From contig CM082577.2 in NCBI GenBank assembly GCA_040954595.2, forward strand, positions 16,747,903 to 16,811,902: a stretch of DNA of 64,000 nucleotides, in the 5' to 3' direction. The DNA is from Balanoglossus misakiensis (Eukaryota > Animalia > Hemichordata). The notes below the pieces were generated by a model. It made no database searches. It saw only the letters and a program-made list of their open reading frames with translations, and was not told the DNA's origin. The position numbers and the translations under genes were made by a program. Shown piece after piece: positions 12,655-39,271 of this stretch. Within the stretch, counting starts at the first letter, position 1. The number at the start of each line of letters is the position of its first letter.

Positions 12655-13318
12655 TGTGACCCGGATTTTTTTGTGATTTTCCAATATAAATACAAAGATA
12701 ATGCTTAGTTTCTGATAGTTCATTGACGGTGGTGTTCACCCAATGACTGTCCAGTATTTGCATAATACTATACGTATTTGCATGCGAACTTTGGCCAGGT
12801 GTACGGCGCCCTCAAGGGGCAAAGAGACACAACCGGTCTCTTTGCTGACTTGGCCAATGCGAGCAGGTTGGTAATATTTTTCTCTCCCTTTTAAATCGCC
12901 CATGCAAGCGTTAAATCATTGCCATCCACCCCTATAATTGAAATATAATGATGTGTTAGTGTTTAAAGAACCATCATCTGTAATATTTTGAGAGAATGTT
13001 CAGTGATTTTTGCTGCAAATGTGTGAATATTGGACTCGGAAAGCACTTTATGCGCCGCAGTATTTTCTGTTAAGTTTCCTCTGTATATTTTCTTTGGTTT
13101 TGTGAGTATTGTAATTCTTTTCTCTCTCTTTGCTGACTTGGCCAATGCGAGCAGCCAAGTACAGATGGAGCCGCTGACCAAAGAAATAAACGTCATGAAC
13201 GTACATTAATGTGTGTCGGGTCAGTGTATAGCTGTGTCCCCTTAGCGAATGGGTTTGAAACAACACAACGCAATGCCCTAACGACAACACCATTACCAAG
13301 CCTATACCAGGGGTCACA
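12655..13318 (+). repeat. 5' LTR of Gypsy B
   Basis: TGTGACCC...GGGTCACA; direct repeat of 19756-20419; AATAAA at 13185-13190. Confidence 0.97.
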
Positions 13319-13320
13319 TT

Positions 13321-13338
13321 TGGTGCCGAGACCAGGAT
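13321..13338 (+). promoter_or_regulatory. Primer-binding site (tRNA-Phe-like)
   Basis: TGGTGCCGAGACCAGGAT, 2 nt after the LTR; resembles the complement of the tRNA-Phe 3' end. Confidence 0.75.
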
Positions 13339-13884
13339 TCTCCTTTTGTTGTCTTCGGTTAGTGGAATCATTTGCCTGTGGTTGGATGAAGACCTACCAG
13401 CAGTCCATTTTATTCTACATGAAGACTGAAACTATGGTGGAGGAAACCGTTCCTAGGTTCCTACATTTGAACTCTTCATGTTGAACGTTTTCCAACCGTA
13501 GTGATTTGCAATGGAGTGAATTGAGAATTGTGATACTTAAAAATACAGCGTCGTATTTTTATTTTGATACAAACTGAGTACGATTTAAGTGATTACTATA
13601 TTTTTTTTGTTTACCAGAAGTGGTTTATATTTTCCTTCATTTTTGTATAAGTATAAATACGCGTACATTTGACAATAGCTAAGTACACTTTGGCACCATG
13701 CAATGAAGAGGTGCAGTCTGTTGTATTAAGGTTGTACTGGCTATTACAGTTTCTCGCGTATGATTATATTTTTTTGAACTGGTTCTTACAGTGTATTTGA
13801 TTTTTTTCGTATATGATATTTAGACCTATATTTTTTTCTCATAGTTGGATTTCACTGAGCAAAATTTCTGGTGTTCCTTGATTA

Positions 13885-15171
13885 TTGTTTGTCAAAATGC
13901 AGAATACGCCGGGTGATGATTTGATAACATTTGATTTAGTGGGACCTGATATTAGTATGAGTCAACCAAGTAATTTACAGTATCCACTGCCATCATATGG
14001 GCAAAATGTTCCCAGTATGCCTTATCATGACCCTTGGTTACCCCAACCACCCTTAACCCCAGCTGAAAATATTGGGTTGCCTAGTGCAGCATCAACACAA
14101 TACAGACCTGTAACTAATAACATGCCTGGTCGAAATTTGAATCCCAATGAACAACAAATACAGAATGACACGTATCTAGCTGGGTATGGTAATACATATG
14201 TGGACCAAAGGGGATTTGATACTGCTCATCCACAATTACAACACCCTATGCACCGACGTGCACATTTTATGCCTACATCCCACCAACAACCACAAAGTAC
14301 ACAGGCATATCCAGACTACCGAATCACATCCTCACATCAAGTACGTGGTGTTCCAATATTCAGCGGTGCGCCCGATGGTAAAGTCTTGGTGGAAGACTGG
14401 ATTAGAGATATTCAGTACCTTTTTGTAGCTGGGTCCATGCCGGAGACGCTGAAATTTTCGACGGTCATCCGTCATCTCAGCGGTGAAGCCAGAAAATTAG
14501 TCCTCAACCTACCAGCTGGTGAACAGACCCTACAGCGAGCGATCGATGAACTGCGTGCAGAATATGGGGATGGCTTGTGGTCAGGGGATCCAATGGGAAA
14601 TTTCTACGAAAGAACACAGCATCCCGGCGAGTCTCCATGCTCTTTTGCGATTGCACTGGAAGATAAACTTCGCAACGTGGAAGGCAAGCTCAACCATGGT
14701 AGGCCGTTTCCAGACAGAGACTATAAACTCACCCAACAGTTCATGAAGGGACTACGGGACCAAGAAATATTTCAACGGTTAGCACCAATGAGAGTACGGG
14801 AGATGTCATTCAGGCAGCTACGAGATGAGCTCCGGTATATTTCCAGAGAAGGGAGAACCAGTGGGAGACACAAGAAAACCCAGGCACAGCCACATGTGAC
14901 AACTGAGAACAGAAAACCAAAGGCCGATGAAAGGGAGTCGCATGATCGACAACAGTTGGCGGAGGTGACCAAGCTGCTGCAAACAATGGTTGCTAAGCAA
15001 GAGGAACAAAACAAAAGAATCGCAGAACTGGAAAGTAGATTTTCCCCACAGACAGTTGGAAGAAACTATGCATGTCACCGCTGCGGACAGCCTGGACATC
15101 TAGCAAGAGGCTGCCGGTCCAAACCACTTTTGAGACCATCTATCCAGGGAGACAAGCTGTTAAAAGACTAA
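13885..15171 (+). CDS. gag: Gag (PNMA-like capsid + CCHC knuckle), Gypsy B
   Basis: 428-aa open frame (first ATG at 13897) with VPIFSG...WIRD...LSGEARKLV capsid-like region and CHRCGQPGHLARGC. Confidence 0.9.
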   Translation: MFVKMQNTPGDDLITFDLVGPDISMSQPSNLQYPLPSYGQNVPSMPYHDPWLPQPPLTPAENIGLPSAASTQYRPVTNNMPGRNLNPNEQQIQNDTYLAGYGNTYVDQRGFDTAHPQLQHPMHRRAHFMPTSHQQPQSTQAYPDYRITSSHQVRGVPIFSGAPDGKVLVEDWIRDIQYLFVAGSMPETLKFSTVIRHLSGEARKLVLNLPAGEQTLQRAIDELRAEYGDGLWSGDPMGNFYERTQHPGESPCSFAIALEDKLRNVEGKLNHGRPFPDRDYKLTQQFMKGLRDQEIFQRLAPMRVREMSFRQLRDELRYISREGRTSGRHKKTQAQPHVTTENRKPKADERESHDRQQLAEVTKLLQTMVAKQEEQNKRIAELESRFSPQTVGRNYACHRCGQPGHLARGCRSKPLLRPSIQGDKLLKD

Positions 15172-18100
15172 AGCCTGTGGAAGAGGGACATTTCACAGGC
15201 GGGAACCATTCCAGTCCCACACACACAGAAAAGACTGATTCATCTTCTGGCCAGCTGAGAGTCGTGGTAAACCAGTTTGTAGGACCACTGAACGAAACAG
15301 AAGTCGAGGTGAATGGCGTTACCTGTACAGCTCTGATAGACACTGGATCACAAGTGACTACAGTAACAGAGTCATTTTACACTACGCATGCTCACCTTGC
15401 CAGCCAGATACCTGAATCTACTGATGTGTCAATAGAAGGGGCTACCGGAAATGATGTTCCTCATCGTGGTGTCATCCGCATTGATTTGACTTTCCTCGGG
15501 AGAACATATACACAAGTACCAGCATTTGTCGTTCCCACAACAGAGTATCGTCAAAATGTGCCATTGCTAGTTGGAACAAACGTTATTCGCACAAGCCAGA
15601 ATGATCTGAGAGCCCTCCACGGTCATTGTTTTCACAGCAGGGTAAAAGAATCCTCTCATGCGTGGTATGCAGCTTATAGGGAACTTGGAAAATCTGAACC
15701 AGGTGGAAAGTCGGGTAGAATTGGTCAAGCCAAATATTGTGGTCGCCGACCTATGGTCATACAGCCAGGAGAGGAAGCTCACGTCCCATGTCGTGCACCC
15801 AGAATTCGAGCTGGAGTTCCATATACAGCGCTCATCGAAAGCCCGCAGTCTAAACAGTTGCCAAATGGAATTGCCGTTGGTAAAGTTTTGAATGACGTGG
15901 AAGATGGCCGTACTCCAGTGAGAGTGTACAACTACTCGTCTAGACCAGTAACGATTTGGCCAAAAACCTATCTTGCTGAACTGCATGCTGTGATTAATGA
16001 AGAGGCTCTTGGATTTGATAGCCAACTGGAAGAAAAGAATAGTAATACACAATTTCCTGCAGTACCTGAAAGAGGAAGAAAGAGGAATAGGACAAGAGAG
16101 ATACGCAGACGGGAACATGTGCCATGTAAATTTCAGCCCACGACACAGTGCCACAATACCAATATGAGTGAGAAGTCTGGTGGTTACTCTCTTCCAGATG
16201 TGACTTGTTCTGCAGTGGAGAATGATGAACAACTACAGCAGTTGAAAGCACTACTTCAAAAGAACGCTGATGTATTCTCAAAGCATTCACTAGACTATGG
16301 ACATACAACTACTATTAAACATGAAATCCCAATGATTGACAGTCAGCCTTTCCGTATACCTCCACGCAGAATCCCTCCCGCACAATACTCAGAGGTTAAG
16401 AAGCATATTGAAGACATGGCTGCTGCAGGCGTTGTCAGACCAAGCAAAAGTCCATATTCAAGTCCAATTGTGGTGGTGAGAAAGAAGGACGGCTCTGCGA
16501 GAATTTGTATTGACTACAGACAATTGAACATGAGGTCTATCAGGGATGCCTACCCCTTACCCCGTATAGATGATGCTCTAGAAGCATTAGGTGGGGCCAA
16601 GTATTTTTCAACGTTGGATCTCACTGCTGGCTATTGGCAGGTTGAAGTACACGAAACAGATAAACCCAAGACAGCATTCACCACTCCTATGGGATTGTAC
16701 GAGGCAAATAGGATGCCGTTCGGGTTACAGAACGCTCCAGCTACATTCCAGAGGCTGATGATGGCATGCCTTGGTGATCAGCATTTCTCCACTGTACTAA
16801 TATATTTAGATGACATCATCATTTTTTCGCGTACATTTGAGGAGCACCTGGACAGAATGCAGCTGGTGTTTGACCGATTACGCGAACATGGTCTCAAGTT
16901 AAAGCCACAGAAGTGTCATCTGTTGAAGGAGGAAGTGCACTACCTTGGTCATGTTGTGTCCGCTAATGGTATCAGTACAGATCCCGAAAAGACGAAAGTG
17001 GTGGAGCAATGGCCAAAACCCAGTAACAGAAGGGATCTACTAAAGTACCTTGGATTTACAGGCTACTATAGACGGTTTATCAAGGATTACAGTAAAATTG
17101 CAGCACCGTTGTTTAACCTCACGTCTGGAGACCCACGTAGACGCCAGAAAGGAAAGGGACAAAAGAAAGATGTTCCACCATTCATTTGGACAGAAGCATG
17201 TGAAGATGCCTTCAACTGTCTGAAATCGAAAATGCTGTCCGCACCAATCTTGGCTTACCCCGATTTTTCCAAACCATTCACGTTGCAGATTGATGCATCC
17301 TCTGAGGGATTGGGAGCAGTTCTGGCCCAGCGACAAGACGATAAAGACAGAGTTATTGCCTACTGTAGCCGTGGGTTACGACCGCCAGAGACCAGATACC
17401 CAGCACACAAACAAGAATTCCTTTGTCTGAAGTGGGCAGTGACAGACAAGCTGAGGGAATACCTATACGGAAATCAGTTCACCGTGCTTACCGATAACAA
17501 CCCCCTAGTATATGCAATGTCTACTGCAAAATTAGATGCAACTGGTCAGCGTTGGGTAGCGCAGCTTGCGATGTTTGATTTCGACATACGGTATCGTCCT
17601 GGCAAGAGTAATGCAAACGCGGACGCATTATCACGTATACCACAACAAGAAGTTGCAGAAACTTTGAAAGCAGTATGTCATGTATCAAAGTGTGTCCAAG
17701 ATGCAGTTGGCAACAGTACCCGGGATATTTCATCATATGCAGATACCATACCAAGTTTGACTGTAAAGGAACTGAGATTCCATCAACAAGAGGATTCCTC
17801 ACTCAGTGATGTGATTCGAGCCAAAAGTTCATCCAGGAAACCAGGTAGGAGACAACTGAACGACATGTCTCCTGAAGCCAGACTATTACTACGTCAGTGG
17901 GACAGGTTGGCCCTTCAAGATGGAGTTCTCTATAGGAAAATTTCTCCCCCCAGCGGAACCGAAACATTGCAACTCGTTTTGCCACTCCAGTACCGGAAGG
18001 ATGTTTTCCACAAACTTCACAGTGAGATGGGACATTTGGGATGCGACAAGACTCTGGATTTGATTCGCACACGGTTTTATTGGCCTAAGATGTATACACA

Positions 18101-19652
18101 AGTGAAAGTCTGGTGTGACCAATGTGAAAGATGCAACCTCAGGAAGTCTGATGTCAAGACTGTGCGCGCACCTTTGGTGAGTGTGACTACATCTGAACCC
18201 CTCGAATTAGTATGCATAGACTTTTTGACCTTGGAACCTTCAAAGGGAGGATTTGAAAATGTGCTCATTGTGACTGACCATTTTTCAAGATACGCCCAAG
18301 CATATCCTACGAAAAACCAAAAAGCAGAAACGGTGGCCAAAGTTCTGTGGAAAAACTTCATGTGCCAGTATGGTTTCCCTCTCCGGTTACATTCCGACCA
18401 AGGAAGAAATTTTGAGAGTGCGCTGATAAAGGAACTGTGTCAGATCACAAACACTGTCAAATCACATACGACGCCCTATCATCCGGAAGGCAACGGTATG
18501 TCTGAAAGATTTAACAGAACACTGATGAATATGTTGGGAACGTTAGACCCGTCACAGAAACGTGATTGGAAGGAGCATCTTGACGCCCTAACTCACGCAT
18601 ATAATTGTACACGGCATGAGTCTACAGGATATGCACCGTTCTATTTAATGTTCGGACGAAATCCTCGACTGCCGATCGATGTCATCTTTGGTACGTCATC
18701 TGAGCCAAAGGAGAACTTGGGTTATGGTGAATACACCCATGCGCTTCGTGAAAGACTCCAGGACGCGTATCATCAAGCAAGTAACCAGGCAACTAAAGCT
18801 AGACAGAAACAGAAGGACCAGTATGACAGGAAGGCTACTGCTGAGACACTATCCGTAGGTGACCGGGTGCTGGTGAAACTAAAGGAAGTTGGAAAACACA
18901 AGATCGGAGACCGATGGGAAAAGACCCCTTATCTAGTAACAGAAAAAAGACCAGATCTGCCAGTCTATGTTGTCAAGCCTGAGTCAGGAGGGGGACAACG
19001 AGTGTTGCATCGCAATATGTTGAAGTTGTGTTCATTCCTCCCCATCGATGGTGAGAAGTCTACAGAGACAGCTATCAGCAGCAGCAGCAGTCCAGCTATC
19101 AAGTCGAGTATGACAGATGAAACAGAAATTAGTGACTATGAAGATGGAGACTGTGTGGAGTTCACCATCGTTCCAGGGGATGCGACTATAGCGAAATACC
19201 CTGCTGCAGACCAGAGGAGATGTTCACCCCTGTCACATACATCAAAACCCGAAGATATTAAGTCTGCCCATCGAGCGGTTGAATCACCGTGTGCACCGCC
19301 TACGATTCCCCGATCGTCCACAACCCAAGAAAATGCAGAGGATGCCGTGTTGTCACCAGACGTTGTGTTGTCACCCCAGCAACCGAGTCCCGACGTGTCA
19401 GCAGATAGCACCTATTCTATGCACACTTCCAATACACGATGCACAACAAATGATCCCACAGTGCAAACACAGTCACCGTCTACAGATACACATTCAGATT
19501 CTGTCATGTTAGACAGTTCACATACACAAAATATTAGTTCTGAAGAAATAGCTGGGCCCCGTATTCGTAGATATCCCTTGAGAAATCGGAAACCGCCACA
19601 GAGATATGGGTTTATCATGTCATTGTTGAGTGGAACTGCCACAGCAGTTTAA
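15072..19652 (+). CDS. pol: Pol polyprotein (PR-RT-RH-IN), Gypsy B, in the -1 frame relative to gag
   Basis: 1526-aa open frame: LIDTGSQVT, YLDDII, QIDAS, HSEMGH..CDQC, LHSDQGRNFES, YHPEGNGMSER. Confidence 0.95.
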   Translation: MSPLRTAWTSSKRLPVQTTFETIYPGRQAVKRLKPVEEGHFTGGNHSSPTHTEKTDSSSGQLRVVVNQFVGPLNETEVEVNGVTCTALIDTGSQVTTVTESFYTTHAHLASQIPESTDVSIEGATGNDVPHRGVIRIDLTFLGRTYTQVPAFVVPTTEYRQNVPLLVGTNVIRTSQNDLRALHGHCFHSRVKESSHAWYAAYRELGKSEPGGKSGRIGQAKYCGRRPMVIQPGEEAHVPCRAPRIRAGVPYTALIESPQSKQLPNGIAVGKVLNDVEDGRTPVRVYNYSSRPVTIWPKTYLAELHAVINEEALGFDSQLEEKNSNTQFPAVPERGRKRNRTREIRRREHVPCKFQPTTQCHNTNMSEKSGGYSLPDVTCSAVENDEQLQQLKALLQKNADVFSKHSLDYGHTTTIKHEIPMIDSQPFRIPPRRIPPAQYSEVKKHIEDMAAAGVVRPSKSPYSSPIVVVRKKDGSARICIDYRQLNMRSIRDAYPLPRIDDALEALGGAKYFSTLDLTAGYWQVEVHETDKPKTAFTTPMGLYEANRMPFGLQNAPATFQRLMMACLGDQHFSTVLIYLDDIIIFSRTFEEHLDRMQLVFDRLREHGLKLKPQKCHLLKEEVHYLGHVVSANGISTDPEKTKVVEQWPKPSNRRDLLKYLGFTGYYRRFIKDYSKIAAPLFNLTSGDPRRRQKGKGQKKDVPPFIWTEACEDAFNCLKSKMLSAPILAYPDFSKPFTLQIDASSEGLGAVLAQRQDDKDRVIAYCSRGLRPPETRYPAHKQEFLCLKWAVTDKLREYLYGNQFTVLTDNNPLVYAMSTAKLDATGQRWVAQLAMFDFDIRYRPGKSNANADALSRIPQQEVAETLKAVCHVSKCVQDAVGNSTRDISSYADTIPSLTVKELRFHQQEDSSLSDVIRAKSSSRKPGRRQLNDMSPEARLLLRQWDRLALQDGVLYRKISPPSGTETLQLVLPLQYRKDVFHKLHSEMGHLGCDKTLDLIRTRFYWPKMYTQVKVWCDQCERCNLRKSDVKTVRAPLVSVTTSEPLELVCIDFLTLEPSKGGFENVLIVTDHFSRYAQAYPTKNQKAETVAKVLWKNFMCQYGFPLRLHSDQGRNFESALIKELCQITNTVKSHTTPYHPEGNGMSERFNRTLMNMLGTLDPSQKRDWKEHLDALTHAYNCTRHESTGYAPFYLMFGRNPRLPIDVIFGTSSEPKENLGYGEYTHALRERLQDAYHQASNQATKARQKQKDQYDRKATAETLSVGDRVLVKLKEVGKHKIGDRWEKTPYLVTEKRPDLPVYVVKPESGGGQRVLHRNMLKLCSFLPIDGEKSTETAISSSSSPAIKSSMTDETEISDYEDGDCVEFTIVPGDATIAKYPAADQRRCSPLSHTSKPEDIKSAHRAVESPCAPPTIPRSSTTQENAEDAVLSPDVVLSPQQPSPDVSADSTYSMHTSNTRCTTNDPTVQTQSPSTDTHSDSVMLDSSHTQNISSEEIAGPRIRRYPLRNRKPPQRYGFIMSLLSGTATAV

Positions 19653-19755
19653 CAGTATACTTTAATTTTTTCCCCCAGTTTAACAACTTTCCTTCAGACA
19701 ATAATTATCAACGATTGTAAATTACGTGGCCGTCATTTGTCAAACCAGGGGGGTA

Positions 19756-20419
19756 TGTGACCCGGATTTTTTTGTGATTTTCCAATATAAATACAAAGAT
19801 AATGCTTAGTTTCTGATAGTTCATTGACGGTGGTGTTCACCCAATGACTGTCCAGTATTTGCATAATACTATACGTATTTGCATGCGAACTTTGGCCAGG
19901 TGTACGGCGCCCTCAAGGGGCAAAGAGACACAACCGGTCTCTTTGCTGACTTGGCCAATGCGAGCAGGTTGGTAATATTTTTCTCTCCCTTTTAAATCGC
20001 CCATGCAAGCGTTAAATCATTGCCATCCACCCCTATAATTGAAATATAATGATGTGTTAGTGTTTAAAGAACCATCATCTGTAATATTTTGAGAGAATGT
20101 TCAGTGATTTTTGCTGCAAATGTGTGAATATTGGACTCGGAAAGCACTTTATGCGCCGCAGTATTTTCTGTTAAGTTTCCTCTGTATATTTTCTTTGGTT
20201 TTGTGAGTATTGTAATTCTTTTCTCTCTCTTTGCTGACTTGGCCAATGCGAGCAGCCAAGTACAGATGGAGCCGCTGACCAAAGAAATAAACGTCATGAA
20301 CGTACATTAATGTGTGTCGGGTCAGTGTATAGCTGTGTCCCCTTAGCGAATGGGTTTGAAACAACACAACGCAATGCCCTAACGACAACACCATTACCAA
20401 GCCTATACCAGGGGTCACA
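19756..20419 (+). repeat. 3' LTR of Gypsy B
   Basis: Preceded by PPT AGGGGGGTA (19747-19755). Same length as the 5' LTR, and no mismatch seen by eye. Confidence 0.97.
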
Positions 20420-21303
20420 CAATTATAGTTACTTTGCAAGAAGTGGTCTGTTGTTTCGCCGATGATGAGTTTGCTTGTACACTATGATGTAGTAGTTAAA
20501 GGACGCCTAGCAGATTTTGGCGAGACTTTCCTCATTCGGAATGTAGACAGTTGGTGACCCGTCGACTTTCTTTGTCAGGATTTTTCCATATTGCGTCCAC
20601 AAGTATTTCCATCCATATTCTTTTCTTCTGGCATTTACCTTAAGGCTTTGTGAATAAAGATCTTCGTCCTGGTGTAAGATTTTTGTTGATGTATATCTTG
20701 TTTTCTACTTGGTAGCCAATGTCCGATGTTTTGAAGCGAGACATATTTTTGCGTTGCTTGTAGACCGCGTCACAAATTCTTCTAGTGAAACGCACGATGA
20801 TTGGGGCAGGAAACCGGGTATTGGTACCGTGGTCAATGTGTTCATTGCCGAGTGCTTGACGTTTCTTGATTCGATGTGACATGTCGATATCTGAACTGGT
20901 TATGTCTTTTCTATGAGTTGGATGACTTTCAGGGCTACTGTTTCAGTATTTTCATTTGGGAATTCTGGTATGCCTCTTATTTCAAGATTTTCACGCCTTA
21001 TATATTGACCCATTTCATCTTGGCTGCGGTCTAGACCGGATAAGCTTGTTTTGAATAGTTAGTTTTCTTCACGAAGACGACGATTTGTAGCATCAATTTC
21101 CTCCATTTTTTTCTTATTTTCTTCATACATGGCATTGATAAAGCTCAGTGACTTATCTTCCTGCTGTAGGTGCGCTTCCACAGTCTGTCAATTTTGTTCA
21201 GCTTTTCGTTGATACTTCGTATTACTTGTAGAATATATAGAATATTGTCCTCCTCGCGACCGCTCTTAGAATACAGCCTTGGCTTCAGCCTCCGATGCCA
21301 CGT
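20420..21303 (-). pseudogene. LINE ORF1 C-terminal part and ORF2 start (continuation of 10830-12654)
   Basis: Coiled-coil, QYIRRENLEIRGIP, PAPIIVRF and IYINKNLTP ORF1 motifs. SNYNC joins to KSYTLDEF across the Gypsy B TSD. Confidence 0.8.
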
Positions 21304-21598
21304 TGTAGCGTTTTCCCCAACTTCAACGCCACGGAAAGGTTTCCCTAGTCAATGCCCGTAATGCATACTCACCTAGTTGAGTGCGTGCAGGCGGTCCGGG
21401 TCCAGAACAAGTAGAGCGTGTAGCACCAGACCATGGACGAGACGAGAGAGAACCCCGGCTTCCGGTCCCACGGTGATATATATAACCTTCACGGGGTCAC
21501 ATGACAGGTCACCTAAGGGTCACCACCAAATCAGCATTTCCACAGGAATCTCCAGGCACTGGTATACTCCAGGTGAGGTATTCTCCAGAAATACCACA
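21304..21598 (-). repeat. 3' LTR of Gypsy C
   Basis: TGTAG...CCACA; adjacent minus-strand PPT AACAGGGGAGAG (21599-21610). Confidence 0.95.
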
Positions 21599-21979
21599 CT
21601 CTCCCCTGTTTTCTTCTGAAGCGATGGGTTCCGTGTGGATCTCTGGAAACTGGAAGATTCCTTTCATAGATGGTTAGATGATTATGGACGGAACAGCCGA
21701 TTCGAATCAATCCGGGATATGGCACGTTTTTTTTTTCTTTTGGGGACTTTTTAGAGCCATACCGTCGAGATCGATTCTTACACGATGGTGGCAAACACAA
21801 TTTTACTGCCACTGGGGAGGGACCGGAAGTAACAAAAACCAACAAGCAAAAAAATCCCCAGTGGCGTGGGCCCAGATAAAAGGGAAAGACCCATGGAAGG
21901 CAGCTCCGGATGTAATATGGATTTCACAGTCTAACGCCAATAATGCAGCCTAGGACCCCCCCCCCCAAAGATTACCCGT

Positions 21980-24355
21980 TCAGTCGAAGCCGTACAAGCG
22001 CCTGGTGTTGTTGGCAGCAGCTTCCAGTAGCTGGTTCAGAGGTATCCCCCGCCGCGCCGCAACCAGGACAGCAACATCTCCGATAAAGGCTGGAGTGTTG
22101 GGCTTGGCACCATTGGCCACAGGGAAGTACGGGGAGTCCGTCTCCAAGAGAAGACGATCCTCTGGCACCGCCCTGACTGCTTCAAGCTGAGGGGTAGAAA
22201 AAGTGTTAACACCAGCATTAAAGCTGAAGTAACAGTACGGATAATCCCTGATCCAGCACTCGACCACAAAACGATCTCCAGTGAAGCCATGGAAGTGGAT
22301 CAACTGCTCACTGGCGCAGTACTCACGAACGATTTCAAGAGCCCTATGCCCGACAGCAGCAATACACACATCTCCAGTAGCTCCTCTGATGTGCAGAACC
22401 AGGAGCTTCCGTGGATCACACTGGGAAAGGGCCAACCTGAACACGGTCTCCTGGAGGGGCCATTTGTCTGTCGCAACAGAGAAATCTAACCCAACCTCCC
22501 CAATTGCTGCCACCTGAGGGGATTGGATTAATTCCTTGAACTTCTCCAGTCGACTTCCAGTCAGTGTTGCCGCCTGTTTGGGATGTATTCCCACAGCAAT
22601 TTTCCAACGCTTACTCCGGGAAAGATTGGTGGGAAAAGTCGTAGGGTCACAGTAAACCTCCACCCCACCCAATACGGGAATCCCCGTCAGTGATTTCAGC
22701 ATGGAAGGGGAGGAGACCACTACGTCCGATGTCACGCGGGTGACAGTACCCCGCCACGAAGAAGTCAATCGATCCAAATGAAAATGAGAATCAAAGGCTC
22801 CCAGTGGCGAAGCCGCACTGCCAACACATTTCACCTTACCCTTAGACTTAGTCGGGTGAGGACCTACATCCAAACTCTGGCTCCCTGAAGCAGAAGCAGT
22901 TGCCAAGGCAATCAAATCTTGCGCTTCCTGTGATCGGGACACAGTGCACGACTTCCTGGGCAGAGGATGGCTCTGCTTGGTTTTCTTGGCCTGCAGAATC
23001 TGCCGATCCCCGCTGAAGAGGCCTGCAAACTCCGCTCTCTGCAAAGGAGAAAGAAAACCCAACAAAACCAAGAGCACTCTCCAGTGAACGAGTACAGCGG
23101 GAGAATTTGGCGGGTGGAGTCCAAACCGTAGCATGGGCTCCCACCCCAAATCCCTATATAGCTGATGCATCAAAGGAAAATACTCTTCCTCTACCGATGA
23201 AACCGGCGGAAGAAAGACATGGCCAAACCGCTCGAAATAAACCAACAAGCTCATGGCCGGTGAACCTGGTGATCCCCCAACAATCCAGGAATGAAGAATG
23301 CCCAAAGCATGGAACACTCTCCAAGCCTCGAAAGGATGATCACCCCGGAGTACCGGAGGAACATGCTTACCCAAGACATGAGCCCTGAGGTCCACAGTTA
23401 CCTCCGTGCACTCCGGCAAGGGACAACGAACATGATCGGCCGGCGGTATTCCAAGGTAGCCAAGGTAGCCTGGGGGAAGAGGAACGAGAGGGGGTTGCCC
23501 TAAACCAACCGGGAGAAAAGCCTCACTAAAGGGTCCGACCAGAGAAAGAGGGCTAGATCGTTGCACCCGCTGACTCCCTGCGGAGCCAACAGGAGGCTGA
23601 TTCAGAACCCCCTTCCCCTTCTTACCTCTACTGGACTTCTTCTTACCCCGGCCAGTTGCCACCACAGCCTTCCTCACCGCTGGTCCTCGTTGCGGGCTAG
23701 CCGTTTCCATAGGCGCAGGAAGTACTCCCGGCGCTGCCTCCACCGGGGCAGAAACCAACACCGGTTGCACCTCCGGTATGGATCCAACCGGTGGACATAC
23801 CAGTTCCCCCGCCCCCGGCCCCCGAGCGCGTTGGACGTCTGGCAGAGGTGCTGCGGGCAGCACCTCTTGCGGGATACCTGAGTGCACAGACTCCCGCTGC
23901 CATGTTTCCACTTGCTCAGGGTCCTGAAGACGGAAGTCCCGGTACATACCATCAGGTGGAACTTCATACGAAGCCGACTTCTTGGACCTTTGGGGAGCAG
24001 ACCAAGTGTTTTCTCTTGGATTTGGATGAGGAAGATGTTCATCAATCCAAGCGCGATCAAAACCAAGGCAAAGATCGACGTCTTTGCGCAGGGCTCTGAT
24101 CCATCCCCATCGCTTCCTCCGGGCCGCTATGGTGTATTGACCAATCAGGAGCTCCTGGCCCTGTGCCACAGACCGGTCAGGTCCCATGGAGATAACACCG
24201 ATGCCATTGACGAGCTCTCGAACTTGCCAAAGGAAGTCATTGGTGGTAGCATCGGATATCTCCTGGCTAAGACGCTGGCGAGCGGCACTTGGATCAGTCG
24301 GAGCGACCTCCTTCCATTGGCGCTTGGGTGAATCAGGTGGAGACGAAGAAGCCAT
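21980..24355 (-). CDS. ORF3: 791-aa protein with C-terminal TatD-like nuclease (amidohydrolase TIM barrel)
   Basis: AFDSHFHLD, VGIHP, AIGEVGLD, LVLHIR, IHFHGF, LLLETDSPY in canonical TatD order at ~21980-22800. Likely start is MASSS at 24355, directly after a splice acceptor. Confidence 0.88.
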   Translation of the reverse strand: MASSSPPDSPKRQWKEVAPTDPSAARQRLSQEISDATTNDFLWQVRELVNGIGVISMGPDRSVAQGQELLIGQYTIAARRKRWGWIRALRKDVDLCLGFDRAWIDEHLPHPNPRENTWSAPQRSKKSASYEVPPDGMYRDFRLQDPEQVETWQRESVHSGIPQEVLPAAPLPDVQRARGPGAGELVCPPVGSIPEVQPVLVSAPVEAAPGVLPAPMETASPQRGPAVRKAVVATGRGKKKSSRGKKGKGVLNQPPVGSAGSQRVQRSSPLSLVGPFSEAFLPVGLGQPPLVPLPPGYLGYLGIPPADHVRCPLPECTEVTVDLRAHVLGKHVPPVLRGDHPFEAWRVFHALGILHSWIVGGSPGSPAMSLLVYFERFGHVFLPPVSSVEEEYFPLMHQLYRDLGWEPMLRFGLHPPNSPAVLVHWRVLLVLLGFLSPLQRAEFAGLFSGDRQILQAKKTKQSHPLPRKSCTVSRSQEAQDLIALATASASGSQSLDVGPHPTKSKGKVKCVGSAASPLGAFDSHFHLDRLTSSWRGTVTRVTSDVVVSSPSMLKSLTGIPVLGGVEVYCDPTTFPTNLSRSKRWKIAVGIHPKQAATLTGSRLEKFKELIQSPQVAAIGEVGLDFSVATDKWPLQETVFRLALSQCDPRKLLVLHIRGATGDVCIAAVGHRALEIVREYCASEQLIHFHGFTGDRFVVECWIRDYPYCYFSFNAGVNTFSTPQLEAVRAVPEDRLLLETDSPYFPVANGAKPNTPAFIGDVAVLVAARRGIPLNQLLEAAANNTRRLYGFD

Positions 24356-24386
24356 GTCTGTGGACAATGAAGAGAAAGACAATAGA

Positions 24387-27300
24387 TTAAGAACATGCCG
24401 GACAAGTATAAACAGAAATCCTCCGCGCATCCCTGGTCGTCACCTCAACGCAGTGTCCATGGTACCACTCCGAGCAAGCATCACACTGGATCATGAACTC
24501 ACCACGATAGGGCTTCCGACAAACACAATATAGTGTCGATGATACATCGGCGATCTCTGCCTTACCTGTACTATTCCGTTTGAGATTTTCTTGATACCTC
24601 ATGACCCATTGGGGCAGGTCTCGGCTCCGACATAGCTTAAGCCGATCATGGTGGGCAGTTACTATGGCCCGCTGGAATTTTACCTTATACAAGTATGGTG
24701 TTAACTTGTTGATTATAATCCCAGGTCCTTTCCACAGATGACTTAATTTCCGGCTTTTCCCTTTTTCTACTGCAGATTCAAGCATGTAAACGCAATTCCC
24801 TACCTCGTAAGAATAAAGGTTTACCCTTAAATCATAATTCCTCTTCATTACTTCTTGGGTAGATTGAAGTTTGGTCCTTGCTATCTCATGCGCAAGCTTG
24901 ATAGCGGACTCAAGCTCACAGACATGGTCCTGCGGATCCTTACCTTTGACTGATGATAAGCCAAATACGAGGTCGGAAGGTTGATTGACTTCACGACCAA
25001 GCATTAGCTTATTGGGGGTGAATCCTGTATGTCTATTGATACAGGACCGGAGAGCTCCAGCAATTTGTGATAGATACACATCCCAGTTTCGCTGAGTTTT
25101 GTCCACAAAACATCGAACTGCATCCATCATACTTCTGTTGGCCCGCTCCACTTGTCCATTTGCGGAGGGCCGGTAGGGTGTAGTCCGGGTCTTGTGAATG
25201 TGTAGCACGTCACAAATTGCGGAGAACAGTTTACTCTCGAAGTTAGCGCCCTGGTCAGTGCAGATCTCAAATGGATAACCAAATCGCAAAAAGAAGTTTT
25301 CCACGGCTGCATGTGCTGTTATTTCCGCGGTTTGGGATGGAAGTGGTATGCACTCCACCCATTTCGTGAACTGGTCAACCATTACAAGAACACACTCATT
25401 CCCTCGTGCTGTTTGAGGTAGTGGGCCCAGGAAATCCAGATGGACACGCTCCATAGGGGCGCCAGCATGGAACTTGGTTAACTGGAATCGGGATCGACGC
25501 ACAGGTTTCTTGCTAGTTGCACAGACACTACAAGAAGTAATAAACCGGTTGATATCTCGAGACATACCATACCAGAAATATTTCTCCCTGAGTTTGGCTT
25601 GAGTCCTGGTAATCCCCTGATGTCCTGCAGCAGGAATGTTGTGATTTAACTCCATGACCTCCAACTGCAGCGATCTGGGCACAACCAGGGTCACACTGTC
25701 ATCCAGTTCCCTCCATATGGTCCCATTTTCAATAAAGAAGATATCCCTGTTAATCCAATAATACTTGGCTGCCGGAGAAGACAAGAATATCTCATTACTG
25801 CTTGGTTCCACTTTCGATGTAAGCCATGACCACAGAAAAATCAGATCTGCATCCTGTTGCTGGGCCTGACCGATTTCTTTGGTCGTATACCCCAAAAAGG
25901 TGCTGCCTTGGGTGTCTTGGTGAAACCGTGTAACAACCCAGCATTTTGGGGAGGATACGGTTTTAATTATCTCAACTGAGGGGTACATAGTATCCAGGTC
26001 ACTAATAGTACCATCCTCAGGAGATAAAGGATCCCAGCAGATGAAATCCGATTCCCATGGCCATTTTGGAAACTGGTTGGTGACTTGCAGTTGAGCAACC
26101 TTGAGGGTCGATTCGGTGTCCTTGCCCTGATAAGGAAATGAGACTAGTGGTACTACATCATCCACATCACTGGTAAAACGAGCCCAATTGTCATGTGCAC
26201 AAGTACAGTAGTACAGGGTAGATTTCCTGGTCTAACTTCGATGGAAAAATCGCAGCAAACTTCACCATGGGGCTGGCGTGATAAAGCATCGGCGTTACTG
26301 TGCTTCTTCCCAGGTCGGTGTTGTACGGTCATGTTGTATTGGCTAAGTTCTTCCTTGCCAGTTGTCCTTGGGGGTCCTTGAACCGTAGGAGCCAGACAAG
26401 ACTGCTATGGTCGGTTCTGATAGTAAATTGGTTCCCCAACAGAAAATGACGGTACTGGCGAGTAAACCGTACCACTGCTAGCAGCTCCTTCCTGGTAGTA
26501 CAATAGCGTCGTTGCTCAGGGGTAAGGGCATAACTTCCATAAGAAATTACTTTCTCCTCCCCATTCTGCAATTGCAATAATTCAGCTCCAATGGCGAAGT
26601 CTGATGCATCTGTATCTAAAATGAAAGGATCGGTGTTGCTGGGCAAAGCGAGCACAGGGGCAGACAACAAAGCCTCTTTCAATGTGTCAAAAGCCTGCTG
26701 TTGTTCCTGACCCCAAATGAAAGCTTTTTTCCCGGTAACACCATAGAGAGGAACAGCCGTATTAGCGAAATCTTTGATGAATGCTCGATGGTAATTGGCC
26801 AATCCCAAAAACTTCTCAACATCTTTGGTGTTCTTAGGTACGGGCCAATCCTTGACTGCTCGAATGGAACTTTTATCCAACTCCACATTGCCGTTCCTGA
26901 TGATGCGCCCCAAGAAGACGACTTCTCTTTGAAAGAGGTCGCACTTCTTGGGTTTCAGTTTTAGTTGGAAGTGACGCAGTCGACCAAAAACTTTCCGCAA
27001 GTAGGTCAGATGGTTGTCGAATGAAGTCCCAAGCACGAGAATGTCATCAATGAAGGCTAACACGATATCCCAAGTAAGACCTCTGAGTACTAGATTGATG
27101 ACTCTGGAGAATGTGGCTGGAGCATTGCAGAGACCAAAGGGCATTCTATTGAATTCAAACAAACCATATTTGGTGGTGAAGGCAGTTTTCTTCTGGTCTT
27201 CTTCCTTGATCCTAATCTGCCAATATGCTGAGTTTGCGTCCAATTTTGAAAACCACGTTTGTCCTGCCAATGTATCCAGACATTCTTCAATCAGAGGTAG

Positions 27301-28605
27301 AGGGTAGACATCTTTGGTCGTGTGATCATTTAATGCACGATAATCGACACACCAACGAACTCCCCCATCACGTTTTCTCACTAGTACTGGAGCAGAAGCC
27401 CACTCGGAAATAGAAGGTTGGATAACCCCTGCATCTAGCATCTTTTGAAGATGTGCCTCTTCTTCCTGCGCAAAACACATGGGTGTCCGGCGCATCCGCT
27501 GTTTGACTGGCTTGGAATCACCGGTGTCGATATGATGTTGAATGGTGGTGAAGTTCCCCAGATCAAATTCGGTTTTGGCAAACACATCTTCATACTCGAT
27601 AAGTAGATCTTGCACTCGAGCTTTTTCTTCATCTTGTAGATGGATGCCAGACCTCTCCAAGAGATCATGAAGATGTACAGGGATTTCGTCCTTCTCTGTT
27701 TCTCCGTTCCTTTCCTTGGATTCGACAGGTTGAAGTGAAACAGCCCCTACCTCTACCGCATGAGCGATGACCTTGCCTCTTCGAAGGGTCACAAACTCAT
27801 CAGTAGGGTTGACTATGCAAACTTTAGGTGTCTGTCCTCCTGAATGGAGTGTACGTGGTATCATTACCAGTAGATCTTCTGTTGATTCAACCACATACTC
27901 AGACATGGAGTCATGCATAGCACATGGCAGTCTAATTACAGTATTTGGTGGGATCCTTACCCTATGCAAGAGAGCGACTCTTGCGATCTTGGGTTCCCCT
28001 ATTACTGTACCAAACTGCAAGGGTATTATTTCATCCTCAATCCCAAGAATGTTGTTGAGTAAATCTAGATGGATCCCATGAGACCTAACAAAGTCGATGC
28101 CTAGGAGCATTTCGTCCTCAATGGGAGCCACATAGACTCGCTCCGAGTATAGACCTTTTCCCAATCGGATGTCAACCGGACCCACCAAAAACCCCTTCAT
28201 CTTCAGCTCCCTTCCGGCAGTTTGGAAGGTCACTTGGTTAATAATGGGCGGTTTAACATCTAACTGGTCAAAGAACTTATCAGAAATGATAGTTACTTCC
28301 GAAGCGGTATCAATTATCGCTTGGGTATCATGTCCTTGTATCCGAAGTGGAACGCGGTACATTTTACCGGAACGCAATTGACAAATAGTTAACAATTCAT
28401 GTGAATCGTTAACCCCATCTACGGAAGACAACGCAATGTTACCGTCTCCTACCACCCTCAAAACGTTGCGCTCCTTCCGAGTTACCTCTGGAGGAAACAC
28501 CCCGCTCTTTTGGATGGATGAAGGGATAACATCACTATGATGGTGATGGCCTGTTGATCTAGGGGTCACCTCCAGGCCTAATCGGTGGACCCCTTCCCGT
28601 TTGGG
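24387..28605 (-). pseudogene. pol: pol (PR-RT-RH-IN-PHD) of Gypsy C, with two small frameshifting deletions
   Basis: AIIDTASEVT, WCVDYR, MPFGLCNAPATF, FIDDIL, LDTDAS; integrase H..GH..CSVC, TDQGANFES, PSANGQVER; terminal PHD finger. Frame breaks near 26355 and 26210. Confidence 0.9.
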
Positions 28606-30617
28606 GGTTCCGAAAAGGATACCCTACGCTCTGGGGAGGTGAAGCGACGTGAAGGTGAGGCAGTGCAGTCCCGTTGAAAATGTCCAGGTTTTCTGCAGCG
28701 GTAGCAGTTGGACCTACTGGGAGAAGGAGATCTTGATCGTGCACTAACCAAACCCTCAAGTTGAAGAGCCATCTTATTTAAGGTAGATGTAAGGTCCGCT
28801 AGGTGGCGCTCCATTCGTGACATCCGTCGCTCCAGTTCACCAATGGGGGAGGCCTGCTTTGACGTCCCTGGAGGGGTGGTAGACACGGCTTTTACCTCAA
28901 TAGCTTCCTCCCCGGTCTGAGGAGAATCCTGGCTTACATACCGAACCCGAGGTGGTGGTGGTCGGTCAAAAATGGCTCGGCGATTGAATTGATGCCATTT
29001 TATTAGGTTGATAGCCTGTTCCATCGACCGAGGGTAGTTATTGGCGGCATACTGCCCAGCGTGCTTGTCAATACACCCCTGACAAAAACGTAAAACAGCC
29101 TGTTCCATCATAAACGAATCGGATACTCTGCTGTATGCGTTGGTAGCTACAGTTAGGATCCTATCAGCCCATTTGTTCAGAGGCTCGTTGGGTTCCTGTT
29201 TCTGTTGCAGGAAATCCAAATGGGCTGTCTCTGGCAGTTCTTTATAACCAAAGCGTTGCTCCAGTTTGAGCAACAGATCCATGTAACGAATATTCGGTTC
29301 GTTCTCCAGAATGATGGTGTAACAGTCCCCAGCTTCTCCATCCAGACACCAGCACAGTTGTTCACGTCGTACATCGCCTGACCAACCCTGGGAAGTTGCA
29401 TATTTGGAAAATCTCATGACAAAGGATTTCCAACTTCCCTCCCCATTAAAATACAGATTTTTGGGGAAATGCCGGGGTTGGATAGCGTCTGCCCCCTGAT
29501 GTCTTGGTGCATGGACTCTTGGAAGGGTATTTTCGGAATGAACATTCTGTCTTGAAGATGTTCCAGCAAGCATGCCTGGTGTCAACCCATATGCCCGGTC
29601 ACCCGCTCCAAAGTGCTGCGAAGTTGCAGACGGAACATTCATAGGCGGATTAGCTGTTCTATCCAATGAATGTAGACCCTGGGTGAATGTATGCGGTGCA
29701 CTGCCATGCACAGATGATGATGGCATTCCAGGGTGAGCTATAGGATGACCAGTATAGGATTGCGCCACCATCGGTGGTAGGGTGACAGGAAAATACCCCC
29801 CCAACGATGGAACAAAATGCCACTGGACAGAGGAGGTTTGTGGGCCAGACCGCTCTCCACAATACGGAACCGATGGTGGAACACCCCGGGGGTGTCCAGT
29901 CACAGGCACCGATTGCTGAAAAGCAGAAGGGGTCACAACAGTTCCTGCTGCAGCTGGAACAGGTGATTGCGAACGAGAATGTGACAATGGGGTATTAACC
30001 ACCGGAGCTGATTGTCGTCCATAAGTGGGCAGCGCAGAGGTCGTCATCGTTTCCATCGGTGGAGTGCTGCCGGTGACTTGTTGTGTACGCAGTGATCTTC
30101 TAGGAACCGTTCCGGATGCTGGAGTGAACGCGACGGATGGTGCAGCAATTGCAGACCCTGGTGGGACCATGACCGCTGGGCCCGCGCTCGCAAAATCATC
30201 ATCCAATGACATCTGTCCAACATCCGACCCAGGACCATCCAGACCACGCACAACACTCCTCCTTGATGACGGTGGCATGGATAACTCATCAATCTTCTTT
30301 ACCACGTTATCGATGGTAGGATCCCTCCGCGATGACCTTGGGGTTGCTGGAGGTTCGGGCAGCTTAGCCGGTGAAACCATGAAGCTTGCATCCTCCAATT
30401 CCACATCGAATGGCGGCCCGAACGTTGAAAAATCGACACGAGCCTTGAAATCTTCCGAGATGCTGATGTGGGGCAGGGCCATAACATGTTCCCATGTAAG
30501 GTTTCCCACCCGTTCTCGTTCAGTTAGCAAGGTTTTGGCCGATGCTCTTCCAATCCCATAGATGGTAATCAACTCATCCAAAGTACAGTGGTTAATGTAC
30601 ACCCTAGCCATTGTCAC
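28578..30617 (-). CDS. gag: Gag of Gypsy C with N-terminal helix-hairpin-helix domain
   Basis: 679-aa ORF: YINHCTLDELITIYGIGRASAKTL (HhH), Pro/Ser-rich linker, FNGEGSWKSF..LDGEA capsid-like region, CYRCRKPGHFQRDC knuckle. Confidence 0.9.
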   Translation of the reverse strand: MTMARVYINHCTLDELITIYGIGRASAKTLLTERERVGNLTWEHVMALPHISISEDFKARVDFSTFGPPFDVELEDASFMVSPAKLPEPPATPRSSRRDPTIDNVVKKIDELSMPPSSRRSVVRGLDGPGSDVGQMSLDDDFASAGPAVMVPPGSAIAAPSVAFTPASGTVPRRSLRTQQVTGSTPPMETMTTSALPTYGRQSAPVVNTPLSHSRSQSPVPAAAGTVVTPSAFQQSVPVTGHPRGVPPSVPYCGERSGPQTSSVQWHFVPSLGGYFPVTLPPMVAQSYTGHPIAHPGMPSSSVHGSAPHTFTQGLHSLDRTANPPMNVPSATSQHFGAGDRAYGLTPGMLAGTSSRQNVHSENTLPRVHAPRHQGADAIQPRHFPKNLYFNGEGSWKSFVMRFSKYATSQGWSGDVRREQLCWCLDGEAGDCYTIILENEPNIRYMDLLLKLEQRFGYKELPETAHLDFLQQKQEPNEPLNKWADRILTVATNAYSRVSDSFMMEQAVLRFCQGCIDKHAGQYAANNYPRSMEQAINLIKWHQFNRRAIFDRPPPPRVRYVSQDSPQTGEEAIEVKAVSTTPPGTSKQASPIGELERRMSRMERHLADLTSTLNKMALQLEGLVSARSRSPSPSRSNCYRCRKPGHFQRDCTASPSRRFTSPERRVSFSEPPNGKGSTD

Positions 30618-32251
30618 AGTTCACAATCTTAATTTACACAAGCCTTGGATGCAAAAACTTGAGCAAATTAAATTACCCTCTGATATGTTTAAACAAGTCT
30701 AGAAATTTTCTTTAAACTTGAGAAAACTATCAGTTAATAGATTTACACAAGTCTAACTAGTAAACTTGGAAAATCTATATGTTACTAACTGAATTCAATC
30801 TAAATTTAGACAAGTCCCCAAAAAGCCAAGAAATTCGGAAAAATCAAGTGAAGTGTCACTATGCAATCACACAAGCCACAGATTTCTCCACGAACTTGAA
30901 TAAAGTGACGACACAGATCCAAATCCCCAATTCTAATCAATTTCAAAGCTTCTCAAAAACTTGAAGAAACTCGATAAATTCAGTACAGGGAAAAGGGACA
31001 AGTGCTGTTTTTCTCGTGGGAAGACTTATTTTTTTTTCAAAAAGGCCGAAACAATTGCACAGAAAAAATTCCTACACTCTTGGATACAAGCACGAATTGC
31101 AGGACCCTAACAGTGGTAGAAATCTCCTGAATCCATGCAGTAATTGTGATATGCGATCACCCACTTTCAGGATGACCACACATTATCACTACTGCAATAT
31201 TACCCAAATGACCCACAAGGAAAATGCTCTCAGTGATAGAAGAAATTATTGACCTGTTATATTTGTCGGTTTTTTTATTACTAGAACGTAACAATATTTT
31301 CGACCTGTTATATTTGTTGGTCGGTTTTTTTTTTTTTTTAGTACTGGAAATATCTAAGCTATCCCAGAAATATGCAACAATAACGAAGATATCCAGTAAC
31401 AACAGAGTCAACGCTTCAAACTAAAATTCAAATAACCAGGTGGTAGATAAATTTGCACAAGAATGATCGAATTCCCGCGTCAAACGCTATTCAAAGAAAA
31501 ATTCCCGCTCCACAAATGTTATGCAATCTCTCAGCGAAATGCTTTCAAAAATAATCCCGACACGTAACCGTACGACAAACTGCACAGATGTCCCCAAAGA
31601 ATTCCTCCAATATACAAATGCCGCGCTCCCGCAACAGGTGTTTTCTTGAAGAAAAACCCCGAGAACAAAAATACAAAAGGTCGCACAAGAAACGCCGAGA
31701 ACGGTACCGATAGATAATTGAAAACGGCTCCGCAAACACCTACAGCACAAAGGAAATTCCCGGCCAATAAAGACGTAGTTTCGCCAGTGTCGCCAAAGAA
31801 AAACCAGTGCGAAGCAATGAAACGAAACCGCCACAATCGCCGTCCCAGCGACCGTATCGTCCGACAAAAATGCAGTAAATAATCCACACAAATGCCGACA
31901 CAGGAAGATTTAATTCAACAAAACGCATGAAAAACTACACACAAACGCTGCACCGGAAAGTTCTAGGTTTCACGAATGACAAGAATTCCCAAACTCAAGT
32001 ACAAAAAAACCCGAAACTAAATAAACAAATTCCCGCACACACTTTCACTTCCAACACAATTACTTGAGATCCTTTGGTGATACGGAAAATCTGCTCACTC
32101 AGGTAAACCACACAAGCTACTCAAATTCACCGATGAGCACCAGTACAGAAACACCACAGTCTCCGGGTAATTTTTTTCCTTTTACTTTTTCCGCCCGAAA
32201 ACAATGAGTCTTGTACTTACCCAATCCCCTCAAAAATTCCGCAGGGAAGAA

Positions 32252-32267
32252 GTTGCTCGCAGCGCCA
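32252..32267 (-). promoter_or_regulatory. Primer-binding site (tRNA-Ser-like)
   Basis: Minus strand TGGCGCTGCGAGCAAC, 1 nt after the 5' LTR. Confidence 0.7.
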
Positions 32268-32268
32268 A

Positions 32269-32563
32269 TGTAGCGTTTTCCCCAACTTCAACGCCACGGA
32301 AAGGTTTCCCTAGTCAATGCCCGTAACGCATACTCACCTAGTTGAGTGCGTGCAGGCGGTCCGGGTCCAGAACAAGTAGAGCGTGTAGCACCAGACCATG
32401 GACGAGACGAGAGAGAACCCCGGCTTCCGGTCCCACGGTGATATATATAACCTTCACGGGGTCACGTGACAGGTCACATAAGGGTCATCACCCAATCAGC
32501 ATTTCCACAGGAATCTCCAGGCACTGGTATACTCCAGGTGAGGTATTCTCCAGAAATACCACA
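32269..32563 (-). repeat. 5' LTR of Gypsy C
   Basis: Direct repeat of 21304-21598; TATA-like TTATATATA on the minus strand near 32441-32449. Confidence 0.95.
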
Positions 32564-32790
32564 ACGTCACTGGTCTTGCTGCTCTGGCTGGGAAAACGTT
32601 TCAGCTTGCATTTGTTGCACAGTTGTAAGTCTCCTCGGCACAATTGTACTCCCCTGTTAGTTTTGCAGTCGTTGCACTTCATCATTTTCCTTAACGTATT
32701 GTACGGGCACAAATTGACAGGATATTTCCAATTGTTCAGGGAGCCGATGCACCACGCTGTCGTGGCTTTCAAGATGGCGTCAATCTGTGA
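32564..32790 (-). pseudogene. LINE 5' UTR and ORF1 N-terminus (Cys-rich)
   Basis: MMKCNDC...LCNKC reading into the ACGT TSD and continuing at 21299. GACGCCATCTTG (YY1-like) near the presumed 5' end. Confidence 0.6.
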
Positions 32791-38669: not shown

Positions 38670-39271
38670 AAATATGATCAGAACAATGTCTAGTACATTT
38701 TAATGTACATTTCAATATACATTGTAGTTCAGAGAATAGGTTATAATTTGCGTTTATACAGTTCAACTTGATAAAAACAGTTAAGCTTTAAATAATCTCT
38801 GATATACACTGTACTTAGAATTCAGACTAATAAATGATATTGCCTGATAGTATATCAAGAAAACACTTATTTATGAATTTATGATAAAATGGCCAAAAAT
38901 GAAAGGAATATCAGTAGAGTGAAACATTTCCGCAAGTTTTGTGCAATGAAAAATAAAAATCCAATGTCTCGGTGGAGTACATTTACTTCCATGTGTCTAC
39001 TGGAGGAGATCATGCTTTGTTTCTGAAGTTCTAAAGTGAGAAATGCAATGTTGTCATTGTATTTTGCATATTACTACAGTGACGACCATATTCCTTTTCG
39101 GCAAAGATTAATTATTCATCTGGTTAAAACTTGTATATAACTCATGTTTAGGGTTTATAATACTTGTATATACGTCATGGAGCGTTAACTTATGCAAATT
39201 AGTATTTAAATATACCCAATTATGACAACTAACCTGTTTTCGCACTATAAAGGTGATTTCTATAACTCTTA

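Follow-up and report, generated by a model that had tools for sequence, protein, structure and literature searches.

What is an intact nuclease gene doing inside a long terminal repeat (LTR) retrotransposon, and does it belong to a lineage of such elements or to a single accidental copy? The question is raised by a 64,000-nucleotide stretch of the genome of the hemichordate Balanoglossus misakiensis (contig CM082577.2, positions 16,747,903 to 16,811,902; the whole stretch is called here the window, and its own numbering is used throughout). On its minus strand, from 32563 to 21304, the window carries an 11.3-kb Gypsy element that encloses a third open reading frame (ORF3) with a TatD nuclease domain. 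A preliminary description made from the letters alone had suggested that a lineage of Gypsy elements captured this nuclease and keeps it in the env position. We find the gene behind the integrase of many related elements and under purifying selection across their branch, and we can propose, with graded confidence, what it may do there.

ORF3 (21980..24355, minus strand) runs from an ATG at 24355 to a stop at 21982-21980, 791 codons without an internal stop, and lies within the LTRs and target duplication, between pol and the polypurine tract, just as had been described; its ATG is 32 bases past the pol stop and its end falls ~380 bases short of the polypurine tract. An in-frame ATG 25 codons upstream of 24355 overlaps the end of pol; we favour 24355 as the probable start because a candidate splice acceptor ends two bases before it and because the alignment of the closest full-length relative begins at that methionine. 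The predicted protein consists of a helical N-terminal region, a low-complexity linker, a zinc finger with a helical domain (together the middle module), a further linker and the TatD domain.

The TatD domain occupies residues 521-789 (21983..22795), where it matches the Pfam family TatD_DNase with an E-value of 1.1e-37 (130 bits, against a cut-off of 27), so that the profile agrees with the earlier assignment of the last ~270 residues. All six of the motifs on which that assignment was based (DSHFH, GIHP, GEVGLD, VLH, HFH and LETDSP) are found in ORF3. The structure prediction points the same way: TatD structures were the top Foldseek matches of the predicted domain (E 3.6e-11, a TIM-barrel fold). 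The TatD part alone was used for this, the full-length ORF3 model having a predicted local distance difference test (pLDDT) score of 47.9 from a five-row alignment. The residues of Group II TatD enzymes are complete in the window ORF3, namely the HxH motif (H524, H526), E620, H655, H689, E738 and D740; the HxH motif and the metal-ligand roles are described for TATDN3 and YcfH in the available part of PMC10085689. All seven are intact in 73 of 83 relatives, which were picked by length out of the 150 best matches and share ~22-40% identity, and in every one of the 23 rows of our TatD alignment (A4). The ten with altered active sites (P0057, P0105, P0044, P0064, P0127 and five more), some of them changed at four positions, are possible pseudo-nuclease sub-lineages. 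TatD_DNase was the only family found in ORF3 and its relatives, none of which showed a DEDDy exonuclease domain. ORF3 scored below the cut-off of all NCBIfam TatD models, including that for QatD (71 bits against 230).

The middle module (residues 305-475; 22931..23443) combines a C2H2 finger, whose ligands C311, C316, H326 and H331 are invariant in 70 of the 70 rows that cover them, with a conserved helical domain carrying the motif P-x-N-S-P-A-x-L-x-H-W-R. Its predicted fold is confident (pLDDT 87.5). The module matched no Pfam family; Foldseek against PDB and viral structures gave no match at E <= 0.001, and VIA-align gave a best Z of 3.9, with several chains of calponin-homology type at Z 2.4-3.9 and none of them clear. 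These searches show neither a new fold nor a relationship. All ESM Atlas matches were under 0.9. Six ORF3s that were scanned had no signal peptide (all six N-termini are hydrophilic) and no conserved membrane segment, and no match to an envelope family was found. Hydropathy over 19 residues peaked at 1.93 in the window ORF3, at a place within the folded helical domain, and at 0.97-1.41 in five relatives. ORF3 also contains short basic clusters.

Relatives of ORF3 are numerous and widely spread among animals. A HMMER search returned 209 cluster representatives at E <= 1e-30, with named sources among bivalves (Mya, Argopecten, Ostrea, Crassostrea, Pinctada, Ruditapes, Tegillarca), the gastropod Elysia, echinoderms (Acanthaster, Lytechinus, Strongylocentrotus) and the hemichordate Ptychodera, whose protein is the closest full-length relative at 48% identity. 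One cluster from Mya arenaria has 13 members, seven of which are 824 residues long, 97-99.9% identical and spread over six records, as expected of a dispersed repeat. A starfish gene model (P0198) fuses integrase, PHD and TatD, probably through a join made in gene prediction. Beyond animal proteins, a metagenome scan contained at least one family member among the 80 TatD loci listed, which were mostly bacterial TatDs, and viral contigs gave seven distant TatD loci without Gypsy genes and no match to a family motif.

The linkage of ORF3 to Gypsy elements could be followed on contigs of two metagenome bins. Searching prokaryotic genome contigs for a family motif gave 14 loci, eight of them in two bins labelled Sedimenticola sp. 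(G001 and G002; for example L130, L132, L139, L143, L144 and L149). These bins contain 121 and 11 Gypsy-integrase matches, from which we infer that their Gypsy contigs are contaminating host DNA. The 28 TatD matches in the bins comprise 18 close relatives of ORF3, four members of a second lineage, four bacterial TatDs and two pieces of one broken copy. Directly upstream of 15 of the 18 close relatives, and on the same strand, stands a Gypsy integrase and/or a PHD finger, the very linkage that the preliminary description had proposed looking for; as to the other three, two contigs start inside ORF3 and one has a reverse transcriptase (RT) fragment upstream. None of the four bacterial TatD loci in the same bins is accompanied by Gypsy genes. 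Both PHD and TatD are encoded on each of the eleven contigs that match best in integrase (48-56% identity); TatD was found on none of the 19 integrase contigs ranked next, many of which end shortly after the integrase, so that its absence is firm only for complete ones such as C90. The order downstream of the gene is preserved on one contig (L008), where TatD is followed by an untranslated region, a polypurine tract and a sequence that starts with TG. A helix-hairpin-helix was present at the N-terminus of Gag in seven of eight relatives scanned, three times above the HHH_3 cut-off, and the eighth is cut at its start. We are nearly certain that the TatD ORF3 is cargo of an entire Gypsy branch.

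Two further observations were made on these contigs. The second lineage (L147:7518-9032, L123, L146, L125) has an ORF3 of ~500-590 residues with a related finger/helical module and an intact TatD; the one full element of this lineage (C1247) has a helix-hairpin-helix Gag, lacks the PHD finger and shows no obvious acceptor before the ATG. Separately, two loci (L135 and L136) have integrase ends that are 97% identical and ORF3s that are 50% identical, the similarity falling off after ~980 bases; this mismatch reflects either exchange of ORF3 by recombination or chimeric assembly.

The trees and substitution patterns agree with long residence of the gene in one branch. In an integrase tree of 33 rows, the window element and the 11 elements with PHD and TatD form a single branch (support 100/100), of which C90, without ORF3, is the weakly supported sister, C1247 falling in the next branch. 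Several well-supported subgroups (C13+C655, C1277+C834, C607+C713+G2C436, C228+C729) recur in the integrase and TatD trees, and the two sets of distances are correlated (Mantel Spearman 0.34, p 0.01), with a median identity of 40% for TatD and 60% for integrase; the position of the window element is not quite the same in all trees, its support being weak in those of TatD. The ratio of nonsynonymous to synonymous substitution rates (dN/dS) is 0.14 for TatD in both of the pairs that are not saturated, the other pairs being saturated, and is 0.29 and 0.18 for whole ORF3s and 0.05 for one integrase pair. The proportion of nonsynonymous differences (pN) is below that of synonymous differences (pS) in all 253 of 253 TatD pairs. 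The TatD ORF3 is kept under purifying selection across the branch. The profile match, linkage to integrase elsewhere, a single integrase clade, agreeing trees and a dN/dS well below 1 together bear out the earlier idea of a lineage with a captured nuclease, and the sequence-based outcomes named beforehand as refuting it were not seen.

The source of the captured gene can be approached from a TatD tree, in which 43 TatDs of the element type fall into a single branch (99/92) that excludes the 30 prokaryotic TatDs and whose sister is a eukaryotic TatD (100/96); this tree was computed without four rows of A4 (near-duplicates, or left out for time) and without a verified host TATDN2. The topology agrees with a eukaryotic gene having been captured once, long ago, and lost again in C90. 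One close relative (P0046) bears the automatic NCBI name 'putative deoxyribonuclease TATDN2', which suggests, indirectly, that the donor may have been a TATDN2-like gene.

The window copy itself has the parts expected of a Ty3/Gypsy element, all on the minus strand. Its two 295-bp LTRs (TG...CA; 5' LTR 32269..32563, 3' LTR 21304..21598) differ at five positions (98% identity) and are flanked by the 4-bp target duplication ACGT, at 32564-32567 and 21300-21303. A primer-binding-site-like sequence (32254..32267), which may match tRNA-Ser, starts with TGG one base past the 5' LTR, and the polypurine tract is at 21599..21612. The genes follow in the Ty3/Gypsy order: gag (28578..30611), with an N-terminal helix-hairpin-helix motif, a PNMA-like capsid region and a CCHC knuckle, and then pol (24387..28623), with protease, RT, RNase H, integrase and a C-terminal PHD finger. 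The helix-hairpin-helix match is weak in the window gag (E 0.009) and above the cut-off in relatives. The pol frame is shifted near 26,350, where it is open in relatives, and because of this frameshift we regard the window copy as young but not autonomous. Contigs of an independent run (X1) span 30 of the 30 bins of the element, one of them crossing the pol-ORF3 junction (22499-24770). Another X1 contig joins 24770 to 32254 and suggests a deletion derivative in which ORF3 survives and gag and most of pol are gone, a weak indication given one contig with 29 letters on its short side. In runs X1 and X2 the flanks 21272 and 32564 are also joined without the element; this may represent another copy of the repeat or an empty allele, the flank being itself a high-depth repeat.

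How would ORF3 be expressed? A candidate splice acceptor, a pyrimidine tract followed by CAG, lies at 24358..24387, and a candidate donor, GTAAGT, at 32215..32220, 48 bases past the LTR, an offset shared with one other element. With sites chosen by eye, an acceptor was found 0-16 bases before an ORF3 ATG in all 14 of the main-lineage elements examined, compared with 14-30% of internal ATGs, where a lower score threshold was applied. From these acceptor and donor sequences it is likely that ORF3 is made separately, from a spliced message. In env-bearing Gypsy elements env is expressed from a spliced message. The 'env position' of the preliminary description is apt for the place of the gene and for its probable mode of expression, and does not extend to the protein, which is without envelope features.

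The best overall explanation, which we hold tentatively, is that a selected ORF3 provides the element with a soluble accessory nuclease that clears hybrids or single strands. A spliced ORF3 message would yield a soluble, metal-dependent enzyme; the finger/helical module would help it to bind nucleic acid or a partner; and in germ cells the enzyme would remove RNA:DNA hybrids or single-stranded nucleic acid produced by the element's transcription and reverse transcription. The parts of this explanation differ in strength. That ORF3 is an active, metal-dependent nuclease in most members is very probable from its membership in the TatD family. That it serves to clear hybrids or single strands of the element's own cycle is a shade more tentative than the explanation as a whole, being proposed by analogy with TATDN2: in the available parts of two papers, human TATDN2 is reported to degrade the RNA strand of R-loops (PMC10711561) and fish tatdn2 to be needed in germ cells, which it protects (PMC12709183).

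Several observations weigh against this explanation. The elements' own RNase H motifs are intact wherever our search patterns matched, so that the need for another enzyme to cut hybrids is not obvious. C90, a complete neighbour element, has no ORF3, which makes the gene dispensable in the group, and in 10 of the 83 relatives the active site is missing at least one of its residues. By sequence, the best matches among solved structures are bacterial YcfH (TatD/YcfH) proteins. Compared with run X1, the window ORF3 has 12 substitutions, three silent and nine amino-acid changing (among the 40 differences listed out of 97 for the whole stretch), a ratio that is near neutral and would fit the decay of a dead copy, as expected here. 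As to expression, besides the choice of acceptor sites by eye, the ATG that follows the acceptor is not the first of its stop-to-stop frame in the window element, C607, C729 and C1071, and of the eight elements with a likely primer site only three showed a GTRAG donor beyond it. We also considered TatD as a substitute for a decayed RNase H, a candidate rejected because the RNase H motifs, wherever matched, are intact.

The nuclease might instead be aimed at the host, degrading or blunting its silencing or sensing molecules (PIWI-interacting RNA precursors, nascent-RNA hybrids that serve silencing, or stray complementary DNA (cDNA) that would set off innate sensors). A soluble, separately expressed protein is what one would expect of an accessory factor directed at the host, TatD has diverged more quickly than integrase (the median identities given above), the pair with nearly identical integrases and dissimilar ORF3s looks like module exchange, and TatD proteins have been co-opted in conflict systems such as QatD (available part of PMC13434339). 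No positive selection is seen in the two measurable pairs, though, and the TatD and integrase trees are mostly congruent; we consider counter-defence a doubtful proposition, if one to be taken seriously. Bolder, and rather unlikely in our judgement, is the joint claim that an old and widespread animal Gypsy group, as yet undescribed (helix-hairpin-helix Gag, PHD integrase, spliced zinc-finger/TatD gene), acquired a germline R-loop nuclease in a single capture, and that this nuclease, whose middle domain may have a new fold, is now dedicated to combating host silencing or the sensing of nucleic acids.

A third role, the first to be named in the preliminary description and one that appears improbable, is that of a repair helper, a 3'-5' exonuclease and apurinic/apyrimidinic (AP) endonuclease trimming cDNA ends, abasic sites or integration gaps. 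Most Gypsy elements integrate without any TatD-type gene, as C90 is complete without ORF3. AP-endonuclease activity is recorded for TATDN1, TATDN3 and the three E. coli paralogues, with 3'-exonuclease activity also for TATDN1 and TATDN3 (available part of PMC10085689), and the helix-hairpin-helix of Gag and the PHD finger of integrase mark a lineage that has gathered DNA- and chromatin-binding modules; against this, ORF3 and Pol are separate proteins, and there is no evident route by which ORF3 would be packaged. Pol-fused relatives were absent from the first 167 proteins and, as weak evidence, from 3,378 candidates of 1,386-3,955 residues. That the TatD fold acts mainly in nucleic-acid binding or as a scaffold, with catalysis secondary, would be in keeping with the altered active sites in a minority of relatives, some with four residues changed at once, and with the stricter conservation of the zinc finger; the full set of seven residues in 73 of the 83, at such low identity, makes it very unlikely. 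Least credible of all is that the window copy alone captured a TatD gene from its host, or that the arrangement is an artefact of assembly. The broken pol of this copy might invite such a view, which is refuted by the X1 contigs bridging pol and ORF3, by the recurrence of the layout in 15 divergent contigs and the starfish gene model, and by the 209 cluster representatives.

The remainder of the window holds other mobile DNA. On the plus strand (12655-20419) lies another Gypsy element, unrelated to the first, with identical 664-bp LTRs, a 4-bp target duplication, an open gag and a 1,537-residue pol frame; it lacks a third ORF. The broken remnant of a third Gypsy element (1121-6949), with RT/RNase H at 2923-3975 and integrase at 5114-6949, is interrupted by an inverted-repeat element (3974-5093). 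We further noted a DUF7869 frame (9279-10355), a 474-codon frame without Pfam match (37275-38699), a non-LTR-type RT fragment (39969-41315) and, on the minus strand (58500-64000), a tandem array of at least 62 near-identical 84-bp units that encode C2H2 zinc fingers, with stops at intervals.

Apart from env, little is known of accessory genes in LTR retrotransposons, and the single enzymatic precedent to come up in our survey is limited to rotifers. In the present case one Gypsy branch has retained, in molluscs, echinoderms and a hemichordate alike, a nuclease whose active site is intact, a retention which implies that it is probably useful to the element; this usefulness is directly testable with the soluble 270-residue domain. 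If the counter-defence reading were true, ORF3 would be a catalytic counter-defence gene of LTR retrotransposons. There is also a consequence for annotation, in that such ORF3s pass as host TATDN2-like or bacterial TatD genes in public databases: at NCBI the relatives are listed as uncharacterized proteins, as TATDN2-like host genes or as bacterial TatD hydrolases in contaminated bins. The ORF3s of the bins are titled 'TatD family hydrolase [Sedimenticola sp.]', and a further relative is entered under a Ca. Thiodiazotropha bin.

Among known systems, Gypsy elements with an env of the errantivirus type resemble the window element in having, downstream of pol and upstream of the polypurine tract, a third ORF directly preceded by a splice acceptor; ORF3 differs in having no signal peptide, conserved membrane segment or envelope family match. 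QatD, of the QatABCD anti-phage system, is likewise a TatD-family HxH nuclease engaged in genetic conflict (available part of PMC13434339), but it is a gene of a bacterial operon, and ORF3 scores far below its cut-off. Group II TatD enzymes (TATDN2, TATDN3, E. coli YcfH and YjjV) have the same HxH, Glu, two His and Asp ligands on a TIM barrel (available part of PMC10085689), whereas ORF3 belongs to a mobile element, is dispersed in many copies and has, besides TatD, a zinc-finger/helical module for which Pfam has no family.

Our survey of the literature, which covered titles, the starts of abstracts and term counts, with subscription journals, supplements, Repbase and Dfam outside its scope, found no published description of a Gypsy or other LTR element carrying TatD. 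The word TatD occurs nowhere in the main text of a metazoan survey of env-carrying elements (PMC13524379); a paper that, in its available part, defines the MolGy clades by RT/RNase H trees (PMC6238403) has no match for ORF, PHD or DNase; and term look-ups in the available parts of PMC12440569 and PMC6962438 gave no description of the layout. TatD cargo in a Gypsy branch is apparently undescribed so far.

The nearest parallel is with the Juno and Vesta LTR elements of bdelloid rotifers (Rodriguez, Kenefick and Arkhipova 2017, PMC5408684). According to the available part of that paper, they too have an enzymatic, non-envelope ORF3 after pol with catalytic residues kept, a DEDDy exonuclease or a GDSL esterase, and such ORF3s are typically expressed from spliced messages; TatD is not mentioned in it. 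The window enzyme is a TatD TIM barrel, not a DEDDy or SGNH protein, and its ORF3 includes a zinc finger and a helical domain, occurs in both protostomes and deuterostomes and follows the integrase tree. It is also under clear purifying selection, whereas the rotifer ORF3s show no significant departure from neutrality within genomes (PMC5408684, available part). Judged by sequence, the window element belongs to Ty3/Gypsy and its ORF3 to Group II TatD, not to env, the DEDDy ORF3s or QatD.

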